In this document: positions 4,093 to 46,394 of the stretch, piece by piece
Layout: every line of letters starts with the position of its first letter
Numbering within the stretch: position 1 is the first letter of the stretch
DNA from: Minisyncoccota bacterium
GTDB lineage: Bacteria > Patescibacteriota > Minisyncoccia > Phycocordibacterales > PALSA-1337
Direction: 5' to 3'
NCBI GenBank assembly: GCA_041663145.1
Contig: JBAZRG010000001.1
Span: 254,984-318,983, forward strand
Length of the DNA stretch: 64,000 nt
Position numbers and translations under genes: made by a program
Notes under the pieces: model-generated
Told to the model about the DNA's origin: nothing
Seen by the model: the letters and a program-made list of their open reading frames with translations, nothing else
The model's database searches: none

Positions 4093-6135
4093 CTACCTCA
4101 CTTCCCAACCCTCTTTTTTAATACTTACATTTATAGCATTCATAACTTTTGATACTTCATCGTCTGTAAGAGTTCTATCCATCGATTGGAAAACCATACG
4201 GAAAGCGTATGACACTTTTCCTTCTTTTTTGAAAGTATCGAATAACAAATGCCTGACTAATAAATCCGATGCATCGGCAGATTTTATTGCTCCTTCTATT
4301 GTATTCCATACACCATTCGAATCGATAGATTCAGGAACAAAAACAGCAATGTCTCGAACTATAAAAGGATACTGTGAATATTTCGTATATCTCTTATCAG
4401 ATAACGCTTTGAATTCAAGATCTATAGCCGACGTAGATGTGACTGAAGAAGATTTCGATCCTGTATTTGATACAGATCGAACGAGACTTAAAATTTCACT
4501 AAGATCAATTTCACAAGCATAACTTTGATTTTGCGAGATAATTTTCGGAACGGAAAGTCCTATATTCAATCTTGCGAAAATTTCTTTTATAGCATTTTCG
4601 ATAATAACTCCTCCGTTTACACCTTTCATCTTTTTGACTTGAGCTGAACCGAGAGAAAGCACTACATTTTCTTGATTATGAGTAAAGACTCGACCGATCT
4701 CAAATATCTTAATTGAGTCGAGACCGAGTAGATCTGCATTTAAAACATTTTTATGAACGCAAGAAAGTATACCTTCAGTTAAGTTTTTTCGAATAAACGC
4801 CTTATCTTTGGCAAGAGGTTTTAAAGTCTCAATATCGCCTTTTTCAACAAGTGAATAGAGGCTGACTTCGGAAAAACCGATACCGGTTAATATATTCTTC
4901 AATCGTTCCGAAACAGAAAAGTTCAATTCTGTAATCGGATCCGTAGTTGCTTTCGCTGGCAATTTTCCGGCAATCTTTTCATAACCATATACACGACCGA
5001 TCTCTTCGACGATATCTTCACGAATTCTCAAATCTAATCGTTCGTGCGGTATAGTCAGAGACCATATATTCCCTTTTGCGACGACACCCATGTTCATCTT
5101 CATCAGAATATTTTTTATTGTATCTGCAGGAACTTCTATGCCTAATCTTTCTTTTACATACGCGGGATCAAAATCAACAATCACGTCTTTGGATTTATGC
5201 TGATATTCATCAACAATCGGACCAAAAACAGCATTCGGATATCGTTCTTTTATAAGTGCACAAGCATTATTCATCCCATGAATAGCCAATTCCGGAGTGA
5301 TCTCATTTTCAAACCTCTTTGAAGAATCGCTTCGAATATCGTATTTGGTGGAAGTACGTCTCACTGCCGTCGGATCAAAATTGGCGGATTCGATAATAAT
5401 CCTTTTTGTGGATTCCGAGACTTCAGCTCTCTTCCCTCCTTTGGCTCCAGCGATGACAAGTGGTCCATCTTCATCGGCAATGACATTGTCATCTGAAGTC
5501 AAAATGATCTCCCGACCATCGAGAAGTACGATCTTTTCTCCTTCTTTGGCGGACCTTACCGTGATAGGACCCTTAACCTTATCTGCATCGAAAGCATGCA
5601 AAGGCTGACCGATGTCATACATCACATAGTTTGTAATATCAACAATAGGATTTATAGAACGTTGACCAATAGATTCTAAAGCACTTTTCAAATATGCTGA
5701 AAAATTATTTGATCCTGCCTTCGCTAAAGCTACGGCAGGCAAGCCTGCTTTCGGCACGGCTACTGGAGGCAAGCCTGCTTTCGAATTTATCTCGATACAT
5801 CTAGCTATATATCTTCGGCAAAATTTATCATTCTCCAATTTTACAATAGGACAATGATCTGCATTGGCAGATAACGCCTCCACATATCGTTTCTTTGGCA
5901 ACATATCAGTTAAGAATGATATCTCATCAGCGATACCCTTATGTGACAAAGCGTAGTGGGCTCTGTCAGGCAGAACCTTGATATCCAAAACTGAATCAGC
6001 ACTACCGTCAGTATTTTTTATATCCTCGACTCCTTCAACCTCAAAAGAATGCATAGCAAAAAGATCAGCGAGCGTATCCGCATCTGGGATTTTTGCATCA
6101 AAATATGTTTGTAACCACTTGTGAGAGACTTTCAT
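4093..6135 (-). CDS. pheT: phenylalanine--tRNA ligase beta subunit (short, domain-reduced form)
   Basis: 680 aa; MKVSHKWLQTYF start, B3/4, B5 and anticodon-binding-like C-terminus; overlaps pheS stop; contains internal 30-nt tandem duplication. Confidence 0.9.
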   Translation of the reverse strand: MKVSHKWLQTYFDAKIPDADTLADLFAMHSFEVEGVEDIKNTDGSADSVLDIKVLPDRAHYALSHKGIADEISFLTDMLPKKRYVEALSANADHCPIVKLENDKFCRRYIARCIEINSKAGLPPVAVPKAGLPAVALAKAGSNNFSAYLKSALESIGQRSINPIVDITNYVMYDIGQPLHAFDADKVKGPITVRSAKEGEKIVLLDGREIILTSDDNVIADEDGPLVIAGAKGGKRAEVSESTKRIIIESANFDPTAVRRTSTKYDIRSDSSKRFENEITPELAIHGMNNACALIKERYPNAVFGPIVDEYQHKSKDVIVDFDPAYVKERLGIEVPADTIKNILMKMNMGVVAKGNIWSLTIPHERLDLRIREDIVEEIGRVYGYEKIAGKLPAKATTDPITELNFSVSERLKNILTGIGFSEVSLYSLVEKGDIETLKPLAKDKAFIRKNLTEGILSCVHKNVLNADLLGLDSIKIFEIGRVFTHNQENVVLSLGSAQVKKMKGVNGGVIIENAIKEIFARLNIGLSVPKIISQNQSYACEIDLSEILSLVRSVSNTGSKSSSVTSTSAIDLEFKALSDKRYTKYSQYPFIVRDIAVFVPESIDSNGVWNTIEGAIKSADASDLLVRHLLFDTFKKEGKVSYAFRMVFQSMDRTLTDDEVSKVMNAINVSIKKEGWEVR

Positions 6136-12064: not shown

Positions 12065-12319
12065 CTACTTCTTTGCTTTTGACTGTCTAGTTTTGAATTT
12101 CTCAACACGTCCGGCTGTGTCGATCGTCTTGTCCTGTTTTGTGTAGAAAGGATGAGAAGCACTGGAGATTTCGATGCGATGAATAGGATATTCTTTGCCG
12201 TCAGTCCACTTTTCTGTGCCTTTGGTCACGATAGTCGAAGGTATCATAAATTTTACACCGCTAGAGTTATCTGCGAATATGACTGGCCTATAGTTTTCCG
12301 GATGAATCTTTTTCTTCAT
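12065..12319 (-). CDS. rpmE: 50S ribosomal protein L31
   Basis: 84 aa; MKKKIHPENY...HPFYT pattern; directly upstream of prfA. Confidence 0.85.
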   Translation of the reverse strand: MKKKIHPENYRPVIFADNSSGVKFMIPSTIVTKGTEKWTDGKEYPIHRIEISSASHPFYTKQDKTIDTAGRVEKFKTRQSKAKK

Positions 12320-12382
12320 AATGTTAACAAATTACCATATTCTGCAGTACTTTTGCAAGTCTGTTATAATATAGGGACGAAT

Positions 12383-13561
12383 ATGCACATTACATCTACA
12401 AGAGTTTCCCGCTCTCATATTATTTACACCATAGCAGCAATCGGTTTTATATACGTTCTACATTCAGCTATTCCTATATATTCGAACTCTAGTTTCCTAC
12501 AATTATTCGCTAATGAGTGGACTGTCGGCCTCATATATATGGTCGGCTCGGCTTTTTCGATTTTAGGTTTTATCATCGCGCCAACTATGATTCGCCGTTT
12601 TGGCAATTACAAAACCGCCATATTTCTAGTCTGTCTACAGATATTCCTAATGTACGGACTTATAAGTTCGATCAGTCCGTATGCTATTGCTTTATTCTTT
12701 GCTTTACAGATGGCAGTCATTTCACTTATTGGATTGACTATAGACATATTCCTTGAAGTTTACACTGACGCTTCATCTGTAGGAGCTGTCCGAGGATTCC
12801 ATACTGCTGTCCTAAATGCATCATGGGTCTTGGCTCCACTTATCGGCTCTCTCTTGCTAAACGGCACCAACAATTATCACAGTACCTATGTTGCCGCTTT
12901 GGCCATGCTCTTCCCTTTGCTCTATCTTATTTATCGAAATTTCCCGAGGTTCAAAGACCCAAACTATACACATCTCTCGCCTTGGCAATTAATAAAACAT
13001 ATTTCTTCAAACACAGATTGGACTAAACTATTTGCAGCCAACGTAATTCTCCAAACATTCTATTCTTGGATGGTCATATACAGTCCGATATATCTAAATA
13101 AGACTATCGGCTTTGGTTGGGCGGAAATCGGTATTATATTCGTGGTCATGCTCATACCTTTCCCACTCATCCAATATCCACTTGGACTCTTGGCTGATCG
13201 AAAATACGGCGAAAAAGAAATGCTAGCAATCGGTTTTGCTATTATGGGTATAACAACGATGTTTTTGTCCTTGGTCACAGTGAGTTCCGTCGTTCTGTGG
13301 GCATCTCTACTCCTGCTCACTAGGATCGGTGCGGCATCGGCCGAGATAATGATGGAAGTTTACTTTTTCAAAACTGTTCCAACCCGAGATTCGTCTGTCT
13401 TGGGTTCGTTCCGCATCACTCGACCAGTTTCGTATTTTCTAGCACCTTTGATCATGATGATCGGTCTTCTATTCACAACTGATCAATACATGTTCGTGGT
13501 TATTGGAGCAATGTGTCTAGTCGGACTGATCCCGGCACTTACGATAAAGGATACGAGATGA
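12383..13561 (+). CDS. MFS transporter
   Basis: About 12 TM helices; start placed at Met 78 of the ORF (12383) because the ORF-track start overlaps rpmE; -10-like TGTTATAAT upstream. Confidence 0.7.
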   Translation: MHITSTRVSRSHIIYTIAAIGFIYVLHSAIPIYSNSSFLQLFANEWTVGLIYMVGSAFSILGFIIAPTMIRRFGNYKTAIFLVCLQIFLMYGLISSISPYAIALFFALQMAVISLIGLTIDIFLEVYTDASSVGAVRGFHTAVLNASWVLAPLIGSLLLNGTNNYHSTYVAALAMLFPLLYLIYRNFPRFKDPNYTHLSPWQLIKHISSNTDWTKLFAANVILQTFYSWMVIYSPIYLNKTIGFGWAEIGIIFVVMLIPFPLIQYPLGLLADRKYGEKEMLAIGFAIMGITTMFLSLVTVSSVVLWASLLLLTRIGAASAEIMMEVYFFKTVPTRDSSVLGSFRITRPVSYFLAPLIMMIGLLFTTDQYMFVVIGAMCLVGLIPALTIKDTR

Positions 13562-13571
13562 GAGTATCGTA

Positions 13572-13740
13572 ACCCCCCCCCACCACACCTTAATTTGTTT
13601 TCCTCGAACTCTACTCACAATATACCAACATTTTCACAAAGGACTCTCTACAGGGATTCGCGAGTCCTTTGGAAAATGTGTTGGTATATTGTTTCGCAGA
13701 TTATTCTCGGAATACAAATTAAGATGTGGTGGGGGGGTTA
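13572..13740. repeat. about 170 bp nested imperfect palindrome with 27 bp terminal inverted repeats (poly-C / poly-G ends)
   Basis: AACCCCCCCCCACCACACCTTAATTTGT ... ACAAATTAAGATGTGGTGGGGGGGTT; internal perfect 22 bp IR (CCAACATTTTCACAAAGGACTC/GAGTCCTTTGGAAAATGTGTTGG). Confidence 0.7.
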
Positions 13741-13795: not shown

Positions 13796-15094
<1,299 letters not shown>

Positions 15095-24457: not shown

Positions 24458-27400
24458 TTATTCACTTTTCAGCACAAACCCCCTCGTCCCCTCTCCAAAG
24501 AGTCCTGTCCCATACTTTAGTCCCAATGGAGTAAGTATGTAAGGAGCATTAGCTTCTTGGAACTTAATGAGTGCTTTTTTAGTAAGAGCACCAAAAAATG
24601 TAGTTTCATTACCTAGGGAACCAGGACCAGTCAGAGATACAGTAAATCCATGAGTATTTAGGTATTGTTGCAGTGCTTTGACATCATCTCCTGTCATACC
24701 TAGTCTTAGTGTTCTTTTGAATGGGTATGTGGTTGTCGCTGTTGTGGTAGAAGATGATATTATTTTGAGGTTATACTGTTTAGCCACCTTTTTAGCTTCA
24801 TCTTTTTTGCCCATAGACAGAAGATTGGAGACTCTGTTCATTGGAGTACTTCCACTACTCGAAGAAATCGGTGATACTGGAGCTGAAGTGTGTTCTACCG
24901 TGAATGTATGGGTTGAATAGCCTCCAGTATATGTGAATGTAATGTGTCCTGTACTATCAGCCCTGCATACACCGTTTGTGCAGGTAGTTCCTGTGATACT
25001 ACTAGATACTAAACTATCTACCTTTACTAGGTAATATTCATTGGAAGTAAGATCACCTATTGTATATACAGTAGTAGTTGCATTTGTGGATGAGACTGTC
25101 CATGATTTGAGACTGTCTGTCCAGGTGATATTTGATATGTTGAGCCACTCTGGACGTGTGGTGGAGGCAGAGTAAGTCCATGTCTCTCCCGGTGCAATAT
25201 TGAGGTCTACTGTCATACTGGATGATGTGGCTGTTGTGTATCTATACTTCCTGTCTCCGTATATGCGTATGTTGCCTGTGGAGTCTAGTTTGTGGGTTCC
25301 TAGGGTAAATGGAGGCTGGTATTCCACTGCTCCGATGTCGGGGGTGCCGTAGATGGGGTTGTCGAGGAAGTCGCCAATTAAAGATATACTGGTGCCAGAA
25401 TCAATTGCTGTGGAAGTCGATACAATCGAGAAATCACTGCTAACCAACCCAGGGAAATATACATCTTCATCTTTACCATTAGTTTCTAAATTACTATCAT
25501 ACAAATTAAAATCAAAAACCCCCGCACCTGTTGTACTGATAGTAGTTGTACTTATTACATTATTTTTCACATTTGAACCTGAAGCAGCATTTATGCTAGT
25601 CGTATTACCATATAGAGTATTATTGTAAGCATTCGCATTAGATGATAATACTAGACCCGAAGCTGAATAATTTATTACATTATTCAATGTGTCTACAGCG
25701 CCTGTAACTGTTATGCCAGTCCAATCTCCTTTAGCTGGTAATCCTGAAATCGGATAAGCTAATATCCCATTACCAATACTCCAATCTTTTATACTAGTGA
25801 AAAATGTTTTAATTGGAGCAACTCCGCTGAAAGTCAACCCTTTATTGGGAATAAATTTTATATAATTTTGAGTGCTAATAAATGGTAATAGTGCGACTGA
25901 ATCATTTATCGTATCTGTCTTTGCTATAATCAAAGTCTTGCCAACCCAATCTATATCTGCAGGAGTTTCGTAAGTATATGTAATTGTTGAGGTACCTGAT
26001 ACTGTGTCCCCAGGATTCCAAAATTTGTTTTGATAAGTATTTTTGAGTAAGTATAATTTATTAGATCCATTAGATTGATACCCTTCTGCTGTATCCGTAA
26101 AATCAAGGCTTACTTTTAAATTAATATTTCCTCCGAAATAATCTAAATGTGAACTTGTATCAGTTGGAGTGCCGATAACCGCTCCAGGTAACGATCCATC
26201 ACTCGGCTGTAATATTTTTGTATTACTATCGATGCCGTAATATCTAAATTCTGTACTTGTCGGTGCAGAATTTATCTCTGGTGAAAGCGCTCCAATATAA
26301 AAACTTGTAGAAGTAGCCCCTTGGTTCTTGAAAGACAGTTGATAACCACGTTTAAAGAATGAGTCAGTCCATTGAAATGTTCTAGTGATGTCTGCAAAAT
26401 CATCAGTAGGTGAAGCGGTTCCATATAGATTATTGCTTTCAGCTATTGTGATTTGGTTTCCATGAACTACATCTCCAACATTTAAATTACCATCCATAGT
26501 GTAAGAAGTGCCATCAATATCAATACTTGTTATCGATCCTCCGTTTTCATGATTAGGATGAGCTGGACCGGGTACAAAGCCATTAAAGCTTCCACTATCT
26601 CCTTTTGGTCTCATTGTTGCAGCAATTGTAACCGACGTTCCTTGGTTTTCAATTTGATTAGTATCAGTGGTACCCCAATTTAAATCACCTGGATTAATAT
26701 CCTGATAGTTCGCATATCTGATTCCAGCAATATAAGCTCTGTCATAACCTGATGAGTTATATCCGACAACCTCAATTTTTACAACATCGCCTCTTCTAAC
26801 ATTTTGACCTATAGCTATAGAAAACACTGCTGTGCTTGTACCAACATTATTTGCTTTTCCAAAAACGAGAGGTGATGTATTCATATAGAATTGTCCACTG
26901 GCATCAAGATTTCCAACATTCGATTGAATCGAATCGTTAATTTTTACTCTGATCGTACCGTTTACTGCGCCAGAATACCAATAACCTAATAGCAATATGT
27001 CTGCATCTTGTGTTAGAGTTGTCGTACCATAAGCTGAGTATGCAGTATAGGTGGCAGTTGGGTCATACATTTTTACAGTGTAACCTTCTTTAGAATCGTT
27101 TGACCAAACTCCATCATTTCCATTCGTCCATACCCATTGTTCCCTCGCTTGAAAATTACTAGTCGACGCAATGTTTAATACTGCATTAGCGTTATTATCC
27201 CACGACCCACCTCCACCAACATATTGAAATAGTTTTGTCCTCGCCCATTTCATATTAGTCTGTCCCGCTTGGCTTGGAGCTCCTTGGACTGGCTGATATA
27301 CATAAAGAATACCAGTTGTTCCACCATCTGTTTTTGCTTTGTTGTATTCCAAATAAACAGCCGCACTAGTAACATTAACAAAAAACAACGATGTTATTAT

Positions 27401-27520
27401 AGAAATAGAAGAAAACAAAACGACGATTCGCAAAATAAAGACCCAACTTTTTGTTTGTTTTATATTTAAATCTTCAATTAACTCTCTCTCTCTCGATTCC
27501 TTTAACATAATTTGTAACAT
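24458..27520 (-). CDS. large cell-surface protein: N-terminal TM/signal, beta-helix-like Asn/Thr/Ser-rich repeats, C-terminal peptidoglycan-binding (PG_binding_1-like) domain
   Basis: 1020 aa; C-terminal ...MTGDDVKALQQYLNTHGF...TKKALIKFQ motif; (GA)6 repeat at codons 8-13. Confidence 0.6.
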   Translation of the reverse strand: MLQIMLKESRERELIEDLNIKQTKSWVFILRIVVLFSSISIITSLFFVNVTSAAVYLEYNKAKTDGGTTGILYVYQPVQGAPSQAGQTNMKWARTKLFQYVGGGGSWDNNANAVLNIASTSNFQAREQWVWTNGNDGVWSNDSKEGYTVKMYDPTATYTAYSAYGTTTLTQDADILLLGYWYSGAVNGTIRVKINDSIQSNVGNLDASGQFYMNTSPLVFGKANNVGTSTAVFSIAIGQNVRRGDVVKIEVVGYNSSGYDRAYIAGIRYANYQDINPGDLNWGTTDTNQIENQGTSVTIAATMRPKGDSGSFNGFVPGPAHPNHENGGSITSIDIDGTSYTMDGNLNVGDVVHGNQITIAESNNLYGTASPTDDFADITRTFQWTDSFFKRGYQLSFKNQGATSTSFYIGALSPEINSAPTSTEFRYYGIDSNTKILQPSDGSLPGAVIGTPTDTSSHLDYFGGNINLKVSLDFTDTAEGYQSNGSNKLYLLKNTYQNKFWNPGDTVSGTSTITYTYETPADIDWVGKTLIIAKTDTINDSVALLPFISTQNYIKFIPNKGLTFSGVAPIKTFFTSIKDWSIGNGILAYPISGLPAKGDWTGITVTGAVDTLNNVINYSASGLVLSSNANAYNNTLYGNTTSINAASGSNVKNNVISTTTISTTGAGVFDFNLYDSNLETNGKDEDVYFPGLVSSDFSIVSTSTAIDSGTSISLIGDFLDNPIYGTPDIGAVEYQPPFTLGTHKLDSTGNIRIYGDRKYRYTTATSSSMTVDLNIAPGETWTYSASTTRPEWLNISNITWTDSLKSWTVSSTNATTTVYTIGDLTSNEYYLVKVDSLVSSSITGTTCTNGVCRADSTGHITFTYTGGYSTHTFTVEHTSAPVSPISSSSGSTPMNRVSNLLSMGKKDEAKKVAKQYNLKIISSSTTTATTTYPFKRTLRLGMTGDDVKALQQYLNTHGFTVSLTGPGSLGNETTFFGALTKKALIKFQEANAPYILTPLGLKYGTGLFGEGTRGFVLKSE

Positions 27521-27653
27521 AAAAAGTATTTAGGATTGTATAAAATATTTCAGATCAACCACTTCGGTATTATACTCCATTTATCTCAATTTTTACATGT
27601 ATACAAAGTTGATAAACACCCACATCAGTCCAGCATAATGCGTATTATTTTCC

Positions 27654-38883: not shown

Positions 38884-39897
38884 TTGACCTCGCTGAAAAA
38901 TGGTAAAATTACTTCCATGAAAGAAACGAGAAATATTATCATGTATGAATCGTCAGACAGCACATTAAAGCTGGAAGTGCCTATTGACGGTGAAACTGTA
39001 TGGCTATCTCAAAAGCAGATGGCTGAGCTTTTTGGTTGTACATCGGAGAATATCATTATTCATCTGAAAAATATCTACGATAGCGGTGAATTGACAGAAA
39101 AAGCAACTACTAAGGAATCCTTAGTAGTTCAAAAAGAAGGAAATAGAAGCGTAAAACGGGATATTCAGATATACAATCTTGATGCCATCATTTCACTTGG
39201 CTATCGCGTCAATTCAATTCGCGGCACACAATTTCGTATCTGGGCTACCAATAAATTGAAGGAGTATATTATCAAAGGTTTCGTGTTGGATGATGAAAGA
39301 TTGGCCGATGGTAAGAAGTCTAGATATTTCGACGAACTTCTTGAACGCATCAGAGCTATCCGCTCCAGTGAGCGAAATTTCTATCAAAAGATCACCGATA
39401 TATATGCAACTAGCGTTGACTATAACAAGGATGTAGAAACAACCAAAATGTTCTTTGCTACAATTCAAAACAAAATACATTTTGCTGTACACGGACATAC
39501 AGCAGCGGAGATCGTTTCCACACGCGCCGACGCAGGAAAAAAATACATGGGATTAACTAACTTCAAAGGTAAGATGGTACGGGAAAAAGACATTTCCATT
39601 GCCAAGAATTATCTGAATGAGGAAGAATTGAAACAACTCAACCTCATTGTTACCCTCTATCTAGACTTTGCCGAACTGCAAGCGAGTAATCGTCGAGCTA
39701 TGACTATGAAAGAATGGGTATCCAAACTAGATGATTTTCTGAAATTGAGCGAGAAACAAATCCTCTCTGGTGCCGGCAAGGTCAGCAAGGAAAAAGCTGA
39801 AGAAAAGGCGCGGAAGGAGTACGAAAAATATCGAAAGACTGAAGATGCGGCTTATATCTCTGATTTCGACAGACAAACGAAAAAATATTTGAAATAA
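38884..39897 (+). CDS. RhuM-family virulence/DNA-binding protein (COG3943)
   Basis: 337 aa; N-terminal region matches RhuM family; true start may be Met12 or Met20. Confidence 0.7.
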   Translation: MTSLKNGKITSMKETRNIIMYESSDSTLKLEVPIDGETVWLSQKQMAELFGCTSENIIIHLKNIYDSGELTEKATTKESLVVQKEGNRSVKRDIQIYNLDAIISLGYRVNSIRGTQFRIWATNKLKEYIIKGFVLDDERLADGKKSRYFDELLERIRAIRSSERNFYQKITDIYATSVDYNKDVETTKMFFATIQNKIHFAVHGHTAAEIVSTRADAGKKYMGLTNFKGKMVREKDISIAKNYLNEEELKQLNLIVTLYLDFAELQASNRRAMTMKEWVSKLDDFLKLSEKQILSGAGKVSKEKAEEKARKEYEKYRKTEDAAYISDFDRQTKKYLK

Positions 39898-44753: not shown

Positions 44754-46394
44754 CTAGTAATCCATCTCAGGCGCACTTCCATGAGATGCCGTCTTCTTTT
44801 CTTCGGGCATATCAGCCACGGCCGCTTCGGTGGTAAGCAATATGGCGGCCGCTGAACAAGCATTTTCTACACCCAAACGAGTGACTTTGACTGGATCGAC
44901 AATACCAGCTTGTATCATATCTGGGATCATCTCATCTTTTAGAGCATCGAAACCAATGCCTCCTTTACCATTTTTGATCTTATCGACTATTACCGACCCA
45001 TCATCTTTTCCAGCATTCACAGCAATCTGTTTTAATGGCGACTCTAAAGCTTTAAGAACTATCTCATATCCGAGTTGTTGTTCTTTGGTCAAATTTTTTT
45101 TATTTGCCGCCAATTTTGCAACCTCACTCTGAGCACGGATGAGTGCTACTCCACCTCCAGCCACTATACCCTCTTCGATCGCCGCCTTTGTGGCATTGAC
45201 CGCGTCTTCGATCTTGAGTTTCAAATACTTCATCTCAGTTTGAGTGGCCGCTCCGACTCGAATGACCGCCACGCCGCCCGTGAGTTTGGCTATTCTTTCA
45301 TCAAACTTTTCCTTATCATATTTCGATTCGGTTGCTTCGCGCTGTTTTTTGAGCTGATCTGCCCTCTCTTGAATATCGGTTTTCTTACCCTTTCCACCGA
45401 CTATGATCGTATTATCTTTCGTTGATATTACTTTTCTGGCTTTACCAAGAGCGGACAAAGCAGTATTTTCAAATTTCATTCCAACATCTTCAGAGATGAC
45501 AGTTGCTCCAACTGTGACCGCTATATCAGCCAATATATCTTTCTTTCTGTCTCCATAACCGGGTGCTTTTATAGCTAGGACATTGAATGTACCTCGGAGT
45601 TTATTTACTACAAATGTAGCCAGAGCTTCACCGTCGACATCTTCGGCAATTATGACAAGATCTTTTTTGCCCGATTGTGCCAACTGTTCCAAAATCGGCA
45701 ATATTTCCTTCACAGTCGAGATTTTCTTGTCCGTAATCAAAATCGCTGGATCATTGAATTCTGCTTCCATCCGTTCCGGATTGGTGATCATGTAAGCTGA
45801 GACATAACCTTTATCAAATTCTATACCCTCGACAATCTCTGATTCCAAAGTGGTCGATTGAGATTCTTCCACTGTAACTACACCATCTTTGCCGACTTTT
45901 TTTATAGTATCAGCGATGATCGCGCCGAGTTCAGGTGATTCGGCAGAAATAGTTGCAACCTGACGGATCTCATCGTCGGATTTGATCGGTTTGGCGATAT
46001 TCTTCAAAGCCAAAACTACATCTTTCGAAGCCGCTTCTATACCAAATCTGAGCCCCATCGCATTTACACCCATAGATGTATGCTTCATTCCCTCGTCAAT
46101 GATCGCTTGAATGAGAATAGTAGCTGTAGTCGTACCATCCCCCGCCAGATCGTTAGTTTTGGAAGCGACTTCCTTGGCGATTTCTGCTCCCATGTTTTCG
46201 AACTTATCAGAAAGAGTGATTTCTCTGGCTATAGAAACACCGTCATTTGTAATAGTCGGCGAACCGTAACCTTTGTCCAGGACGACATTGCGACCACGCG
46301 GTCCGATGGTGATCTTGACGGCGTCAGCTACAATATCGACTCCTTTTTTCAGAGCTCGTCGAGCTTCTTCTCTATAAAGTATCTTTTTTGCCAT
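44754..46394 (-). CDS. groL: chaperonin GroEL
   Basis: 546 aa; canonical. Confidence 0.95.

Follow-up and report, generated by a model that had tools for sequence, protein, structure and literature searches.

In animal pathogens, phase variation by slippery repeats is standard textbook knowledge. Does it also operate in the CPR/Patescibacteria, a vast group with hardly any cultivated members, which is thought to live attached to other cells? The question is raised by a run of six GA dinucleotides in the first codons of a large surface-protein gene, which lies in a 64-kb stretch of DNA (hereafter the window) from a Paceibacterota (CPR) MAG. A first-pass annotation, made from the letters alone, had read this run as a candidate ON/OFF switch and had assumed an episymbiotic way of life, which the identity of the source organism fits.

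Results

The gene and its product

The gene sits among housekeeping genes, with MurJ upstream and LepA downstream, and a TPR protein is also among its neighbors; gyrB, pheST, tsf, rpsB, enolase, groEL and RNase J lie farther away. LepA is identical to a Candidatus Paceibacterota MAG protein, and its nearest relatives (82% identity) belong to Candidatus Taylorbacteria where the source names them. A RhuM-family 'virulence protein' gene is found at 38884–39897 (+) of the window, and groEL at 44754–46394.

The product, called 'peptidoglycan-binding domain-containing protein [Candidatus Paceibacterota bacterium]' by NCBI, starts with a signal peptide or signal anchor, continues with a conserved all-β module of ~730 aa and carries a PG_binding_1 domain at its C-terminus. 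The match to this domain (Pfam PF01471; 31 bits against a gathering cut-off of 23) upholds the peptidoglycan-binding function proposed earlier. The 'β-helix' label given to the same protein was not confirmed. Neither the window protein nor its family members matched Pfam β-helix families at E≤0.01, the AlphaFold2 (AF2) model of the shorter form P0001 is of low confidence (mean pLDDT 58.5, and <50 over residues 668–799), and Foldseek returned weak matches, with TM ≤0.16 across the full query, to GH87 glucanases and CBM-like sandwiches. The conserved module is without a Pfam relative, a profile search finds no PDB sequence relative for it, and no confident fold emerged from PDB sequence search, structure prediction or Foldseek. 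An exact-sequence look-up with the 1016-aa form gave no record.

At the N-terminus, 25 hydrophilic residues precede the hydrophobic segment, which is spanned by an AF2 helix at residues 21–41 of P0001 (25–45 of the 1020-aa form). The GA tract falls in this charged n-region, upstream of the core. Behind the core stands N-V-T-S-A / A-V-Y, a likely signal-peptidase site, where cleavage is likely to occur.

Table 1. Coordinates of the gene, the repeat tract and associated features in the window
Feature	Position	Strand	Basis or remark
1020-aa surface-protein ORF	24458..27520	-	ORF, Pfam, AF2, NCBI name
First in-frame ATG (Prodigal/NCBI start, 1020 aa)	27518..27520	-	
Second in-frame ATG (JGI start, P0001, 1016 aa)	27506..27508	-	
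(GA)6G tract, proposed slipped-strand switch	27482..27494	-	Sequence + in-silico length change
TAATTGA, early stops of both OFF frames	27474..27480	-	Sequence + simulation
Hydrophobic core of signal peptide/anchor, W26-V48	27377..27445	-	Translation
In-frame TTG, codon L30	27431..27433	-	Candidate start; its use would yield the short canonical signal peptide MRIVVLFSSISIITSLFFVNVTSA
PG_binding_1 domain, residues 943-991	24548..24694	-	Pfam E=2.9e-7
TACAAT, -10-like, 14 nt upstream of ATG 27520	27535..27540	-	Consensus match only
TATAAT, alternative -10-like, 48 nt upstream of ATG 27520	27569..27574	-	Consensus match

Position and rarity of the tract

On the plus strand the tract reads CTCTCTCTCTCTC, corresponding to (GA)6G on the coding (minus) strand. 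The gene opens with ATG TTA CAA ATT ATG TTA AAG GAA TCG AGA GAG AGA GAG TTA ATT GAA. With the first ATG as codon 1, the tract begins at the third base of codon 9 and ends with codon 13 (TCG AGA GAG AGA GAG, or S9 R10 E11 R12 E13); with the second as codon 1, it covers codons 5–9. Coordinates, repeat and gene length had all been given correctly in the first-pass annotation, which placed the repeat at codons 8–13: the end of that range is right, and the start is one codon off.

(GA)6 is the longest dinucleotide repeat of the window, the runner-up being (TC)5 at 14984–14993. In 300 dinucleotide-preserving shuffles, dinucleotide repeats of at least six units occurred at a mean of 0.043 per window, and 4% of the shuffles contained any; scaled to ~1 Mb, the chance expectation is roughly 0.7. 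Hence the tract taken alone stands marginally above chance and is a weak indicator, and it is the comparison with homologues, rather than the tract itself, that lends support to a switch. Rfam identified five tRNAs in the window and nothing else; neither the tract nor its surroundings matched an RNA family.

Effect of tract length on the reading frame

To see what slippage would do, we altered the number of units in silico. With n=3, 6 or 9 a full-length protein is encoded (1020 aa for n=6), and with n=4, 5, 7 or 8 the product has 12–16 aa, namely 14 aa for n=5 and n=7 each. Stop codons are met 1–3 codons past the tract in both alternative frames. They are supplied by TTAATTGA, immediately 3′ of the tract, which provides TAA (27480–27478) after the gain of one unit and TGA (27476–27474) after the loss of one. 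The idea that a single dinucleotide gained or lost frameshifts the gene is therefore borne out by the simulation. The same logic applies if translation starts at ATG 27508, since this codon too lies upstream of the tract. Given a start at either ATG, which is supported rather than proven, a one-unit change alters the frame.

A lineage-restricted protein family

A profile scan of 1.84 billion representative proteins recovered only ~15 clusters containing the N-terminal ~600 aa of the module; profile positions ~600–980 are shared with thousands of other proteins. All family members that carry a specific taxon label are Paceibacterota, bar a few evidently mislabelled MAGs. By these comparisons the family is a lineage-restricted surface module, to which Pfam and PDB assign no function. 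C-termini vary: PG_binding_1 is found in 5 of 12 members, and SLH, Ig-like or fn3 domains occur as well. One member, L022, is adjoined by a sortase gene (4160–4789), which suggests covalent wall anchoring for some of the family. Because of these C-terminal wall or surface domains and the sortase neighbor, we regard the product as a secreted, wall-associated surface protein.

The closest homologue of the window protein is P0002 of locus L002 (50% identity by BLASTP; 54% over the aligned N-terminal module). It has no repeat and a short N-terminus, and its gene is not syntenic with the window.

Repeats recur at the same site in homologues

We collected the DNA of every reachable family member, which together with the window amounts to 149 kb, and scanned it for repeats with the PhasomeIt cut-offs (dinucleotide ≥6, tetra- and pentanucleotide ≥5, G/C ≥7, A/T ≥10; PMC6321876). 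As leader we took the 350 nt that precede the conserved VYLxY motif, and 14 distinct family loci had a usable one. An above-cut-off repeat is present in the leader of 6 of the 14, each time with an ATG before it and the hydrophobic signal-peptide core behind it. In the window, (GA)6 leaves the ATG in frame (ON), as do (GA)11 in L021 and G9 in L011. The ATG is out of frame (OFF) with (GA)9 in L006 (the same as L012 and L013; ATG 28 nt upstream), (GA)7 in L009 and (AAGA)6 in L015. The (GA)6 tract is the shortest among these loci and sits exactly at the dinucleotide cut-off; the other five exceed the cut-offs for their repeat types.

Elsewhere in the 149 kb there are only four above-cut-off repeats, two of which are arms of one hairpin. 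For six repeats in 4.9 kb of leaders the Poisson P value is ~6e-9, or 2e-7 without the window, which was left out of the second figure for having been chosen for its repeat; both values are indicative rather than exact, because the 350-nt definition was set after the data had been seen.

In each OFF locus an ATG lies 4–10 codons upstream of the tract, and a change of one unit restores the frame: n=10 yields 1035 aa in L006, n=8 more than 685 aa in L009 and n=5 1294 aa in L015. The frame is open from the tract to the signal-peptide core in all six loci. At the level of the family, with three ON and three OFF, the two kinds of allele would thus be interconvertible by unit changes. The OFF call for L009 is ambiguous: in this locus the 110-codon open leader contains an inserted palindrome, and translation might start from a GVG at 2836.

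The palindrome of L009 occurs in two copies, at 2510–2545 and 2765–2800, in which G+C-rich outer stems enclose the core TTTTCACTCGAGTGAAAA; one copy is upstream of the family gene, and the other stands in the leader, with (GA)7 on one side and the signal peptide on the other. Its appearance is that of a small hairpin, mobile or terminator-like, that was inserted in frame. At L021, a RhuM-family gene (463–1479) follows groEL and directly precedes the (GA)11 family gene; that RhuM and groEL are found in the neighborhood of both this gene and the window gene may be a coincidence.

In a neighbor-joining tree of the N-terminal module, L021, L011 and L015 are mutually closest (67–69% identity), yet they carry GA, G and AAGA repeats, respectively. 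GA tracts also occur in members merely 33–37% identical, and repeat-bearing genes have tree neighbors without a repeat (L002, L014, L017, L007). The encoded peptides differ accordingly, among them RERERE, RGGA and KERKKERK. Because closest relatives carry different repeat types, we argue for selection on mutability; what is conserved is repetitiveness at one site, not the encoded peptide. Absence of the repeat from orthologues had been named beforehand as a point against a switch. Absence holds for the closest homologue, L002, whereas five other members have long repeats at the same position, two of them ON and three OFF.

Two further loci have shorter or broken tracts. In L008, an interrupted pyrimidine (CT) tract at 317–329, CTCTCTCTTTCTC, encodes L-S-L-S at an equivalent N-terminal position and may be a degenerated repeat. 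L022 was not counted as a repeat locus: its (AT)5 at 1444–1453, which stands just ahead of the signal-peptide core, falls short of the cut-off, and a second frameshift follows at ~1560–1580, right after the conserved VYL motif. L022 is probably a decaying gene, and both tracts look like decayed versions of the repeats above.

A long mononucleotide run elsewhere in the window was considered as a second contingency tract and rejected. The run, C9 at 13573–13581, is one arm of a nearly perfect ~165-nt hairpin (13573–13738, +) between an MFS transporter ORF (12152–13561) and enolase (13805–15094). The outer arms of this hairpin are C9ACCACACCTTAATTTG and CAAATTAAGATGTGGTGGGGGGG; C9 and G7 belong to these arms and are not independent slippery tracts. 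Its RNA fold has −86.9 kcal/mol (z=−11.4 versus shuffles) and no Rfam match was found for it; it could be a MITE-like element, a structured RNA or a terminator.

Start codon and leader

A switch of this kind requires translation to begin upstream of the tract. None of the 39 ORFs of ≥200 aa in the window has a properly placed Shine–Dalgarno (SD) motif; the survey gave three 4-nt partial matches, none on a confidently annotated gene. Initiation in the source genome thus seems to be SD-independent, and in a genome without SD motifs start-codon calls are uncertain throughout, that of the window gene included. A consensus promoter scan found no full −35/−10 pair on the strand of the gene. Besides the −10-like hexamers of the window (Table 1), there are −10-like hexamers 19–27 nt before the pre-tract ATG in L006, L015 and L021, which makes four of the six loci.

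The main competitor for the ATG is the in-frame TTG at 27433. If translation began there (MRIVVLF...), the ATG and the tract would form a 5′ leader or small uORF, and tract length would at most modulate expression, possibly through uORF termination and re-initiation instead of truncation. Several homologues are built this way: P0002, P0003, P0004 and P0010 have short N-termini with the hydrophobic core 4–10 residues after the start, and the signal peptide resulting from the TTG would have the same length as that of P0003. Moreover, the organism with (GA)9 is out of frame with its ATG in several assemblies, and its protein could come from a downstream start. The −10-like hexamers, however, lie just upstream of the ATG and not of the TTG, and L005, L008, L011 and L021 have long in-frame N-terminal extensions. 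In 6 of 6 loci no stop interrupts the frame from tract to core, and the ON frames encode hydrophilic residues throughout. These observations make it quite improbable, in our judgment, that the TTG is the regular start. It might serve as an alternative start or for re-initiation, and as such could make the OFF state leaky.

The downstream starts of the OFF loci also speak against a regular start inside the signal peptide. Here gene callers picked a TTG or GTG (TTG at 1501 in L006/L012/L013; GTG at 1501 in L015), and the resulting signal peptides are defective, one being MGCFFIII, without a charged n-region, and the other MFCAGFLFFGII, with a truncated core. The annotated proteins P0009/P0277, P0278 and P0011/P0280 are without a proper N-terminus. 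We attribute these calls to an annotation artifact, because the assembled alleles are OFF-phase. For annotation in general this is a warning: 3 of the 6 repeat-bearing genes were called with wrong downstream TTG/GTG starts where the assembled allele is OFF.

Could the polypurine tract instead act by its sequence, as a needed Arg-Glu n-region or as H-DNA or a translation enhancer near the gene start? The coding strand of all six tracts indeed contains purines only. Around the tract the mRNA leader is unstructured (z=+1.4), as expected where initiation proceeds without SD pairing, and for want of unusual structure in it we dropped the idea of a structural switch. The purine richness, however, follows from the codons used, which are those for R, E, K and G. 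The peptides differ between loci, eight family members have no tract, and the tract is out of frame in half of the loci, so that no peptide function can be conserved. We therefore give a role for the sequence as such very little credence. As R, E, K and G are tolerated in the n-region of a signal peptide, the composition of the tracts fits their translation in the ON state.

Tract length within organisms

Direct evidence for switching would come from length variants within a population. No close relative of the window protein was found among JGI metagenome contigs searched for strain variants. Over 6.2 kb, Logan SRR18595301, the only second assembly of the organism, matches at 100% identity; being identical, and probably from the same population, it adds no variation data. 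For the (GA)9 organism, n=9 is the length in each of two JGI metagenomes, which differ by 2 SNPs per 6 kb, and in a further Logan/ENA gene call the start is again downstream. Within one organism, then, no length variation was seen in consensus assemblies, which hide minority alleles, so that identical lengths neither refute nor show switching. GA lengths of 6, 7, 9 and 11 were seen between distant homologues only.

These data bear on the reading that the (GA)6 tract is a relic of a longer switch, or a random GA run, too short to slip usefully, with the gene effectively constitutively ON. The tract is at the cut-off and the shortest in the family, and near cut-off lengths mutability may be <1e-5 according to the PhasomeIt authors (PMC6321876). 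The chance expectation of ~0.04 such tracts per 64 kb, the repeat-free nearest homologue and the identity of the two assemblies of the organism point the same way, and the interrupted tract of L008 implies that tracts do decay in this family. Against this stand the five longer tracts at the same site in homologues and the state of the repeat itself, which is perfect and uninterrupted, with stops in both alternative frames right behind it. Furthermore, oipA alleles of Helicobacter pylori that have 5 and 6 CT units are found among ON strains as well as OFF strains (PMC10564699). On balance we consider it unlikely that the tract is a relic or a chance run, and the window gene may be a slow switch or one nearly locked ON.

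Discussion

Our data favor the phase-variation reading of the first-pass annotation, which gains support from the recurrent repeats in homologues, the presence of ON as well as OFF states and the frame simulation. On this comparative evidence, which is strong though indirect, the (GA)6 tract is probably part of a functional slipped-strand ON/OFF switch. For the family as a whole we lean, somewhat more cautiously, towards the view that these wall-anchored Paceibacterota proteins repeatedly acquired hypermutable GA, G or AAGA repeats at one site, and that these are true contingency loci.

The switch would work as follows. The tract would serve as a simple-sequence contingency tract, placed within the part of the 5′ end that is translated, in the gene for a secreted, peptidoglycan-anchored surface protein. 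An n of 6 keeps the gene in frame with its ATG, and the cell would make the 1020-aa protein (ON). Slipped-strand mispairing in replication would occasionally add or remove one GA and shift the frame; translation would then stop after 14 codons and no protein would be exported (OFF), until another slip restored the ON state. A clonal population would thereby hold cells with and without the surface protein. We infer that slippage proceeds at a useful rate in the source organism and that the upstream ATG is the start in use. As for purpose, the mixture might serve as bet-hedging against whatever recognizes the protein, such as a phage or the surface of a host or partner cell.

If true, this reading would provide, to judge from the searchable literature, the first evidence that environmental ultra-small CPR bacteria use phase variation by simple sequence repeats (SSRs). 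We found no report of SSR phase variation in CPR/Patescibacteria, Parcubacteria or Saccharibacteria in that literature, whose coverage is incomplete. It would also single out one protein family as being under fluctuating surface selection, for example as a phage receptor or host adhesin, and would mark its unannotated 730-aa module as an interface protein with host cells or phages. For organisms that cannot be grown, such loci would offer a rational entry to host-interaction factors.

The nearest CPR report we found concerns a hypervariable surface protein with PTD repeats in a Gracilibacterium (BD1-5), which is heterogeneous within the population and was read as a sign of diversifying pressure linked to attachment (PMC6851277). 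Like the window protein, it belongs to a CPR bacterium and is a surface protein with a single-pass N-terminal anchor and a repeat locus. Its repeats, however, form an in-frame 9-nt (tripeptide) array inside the protein, with synonymous and possibly length changes, and provide no expression switch.

Among classical contingency loci are the tetranucleotide repeats of Haemophilus influenzae and the poly-G tracts of Neisseria and Campylobacter. The family described here differs from these in belonging to an environmental uncultivated lineage (groundwater-type metagenomes), not to an animal pathogen, and in that one locus was seen per genome fragment, as opposed to the 'phasome' of many loci in host-adapted bacteria. 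It resembles the loci catalogued with PhasomeIt in several respects: the same cut-offs are passed, the repeats are in 5′ coding regions of surface-structure genes, and one homology group combines several repeat types (G9, AAGA, GA) with a mix of ON and OFF states.

In H. pylori, CT repeats are found at the 5′ ends of the Hop-family genes sabA, sabB and hopZ, and likewise in oipA. The oipA repeat is located in the 5′ end that codes for the signal peptide, and has 5–11 units in ON and OFF strains (PMC10564699). The likeness to the window gene is one of proposed mechanism only, as the window protein has no Hop-related domain and PG_binding_1 is its sole Pfam match. A Hop protein is a β-barrel in the outer membrane of a diderm, whereas the product here is a Sec-exported, peptidoglycan-binding, all-β CPR protein. 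The CT strand codes for Leu/Ser in the signal peptide of H. pylori, and the tract is in the hydrophobic core; here the GA strand codes for Arg/Glu, in the n-region upstream of the core. In H. pylori, variation has been followed within one species and by experiment, and here it is seen between distant homologues only, as 6, 7, 9 and 11 GA units in ON and OFF genes compared with the 5–11 units among oipA strains. In both cases, a CT/GA tract lies in the first codons, in the signal-sequence region, and the frame sets, or here would set, ON or OFF.
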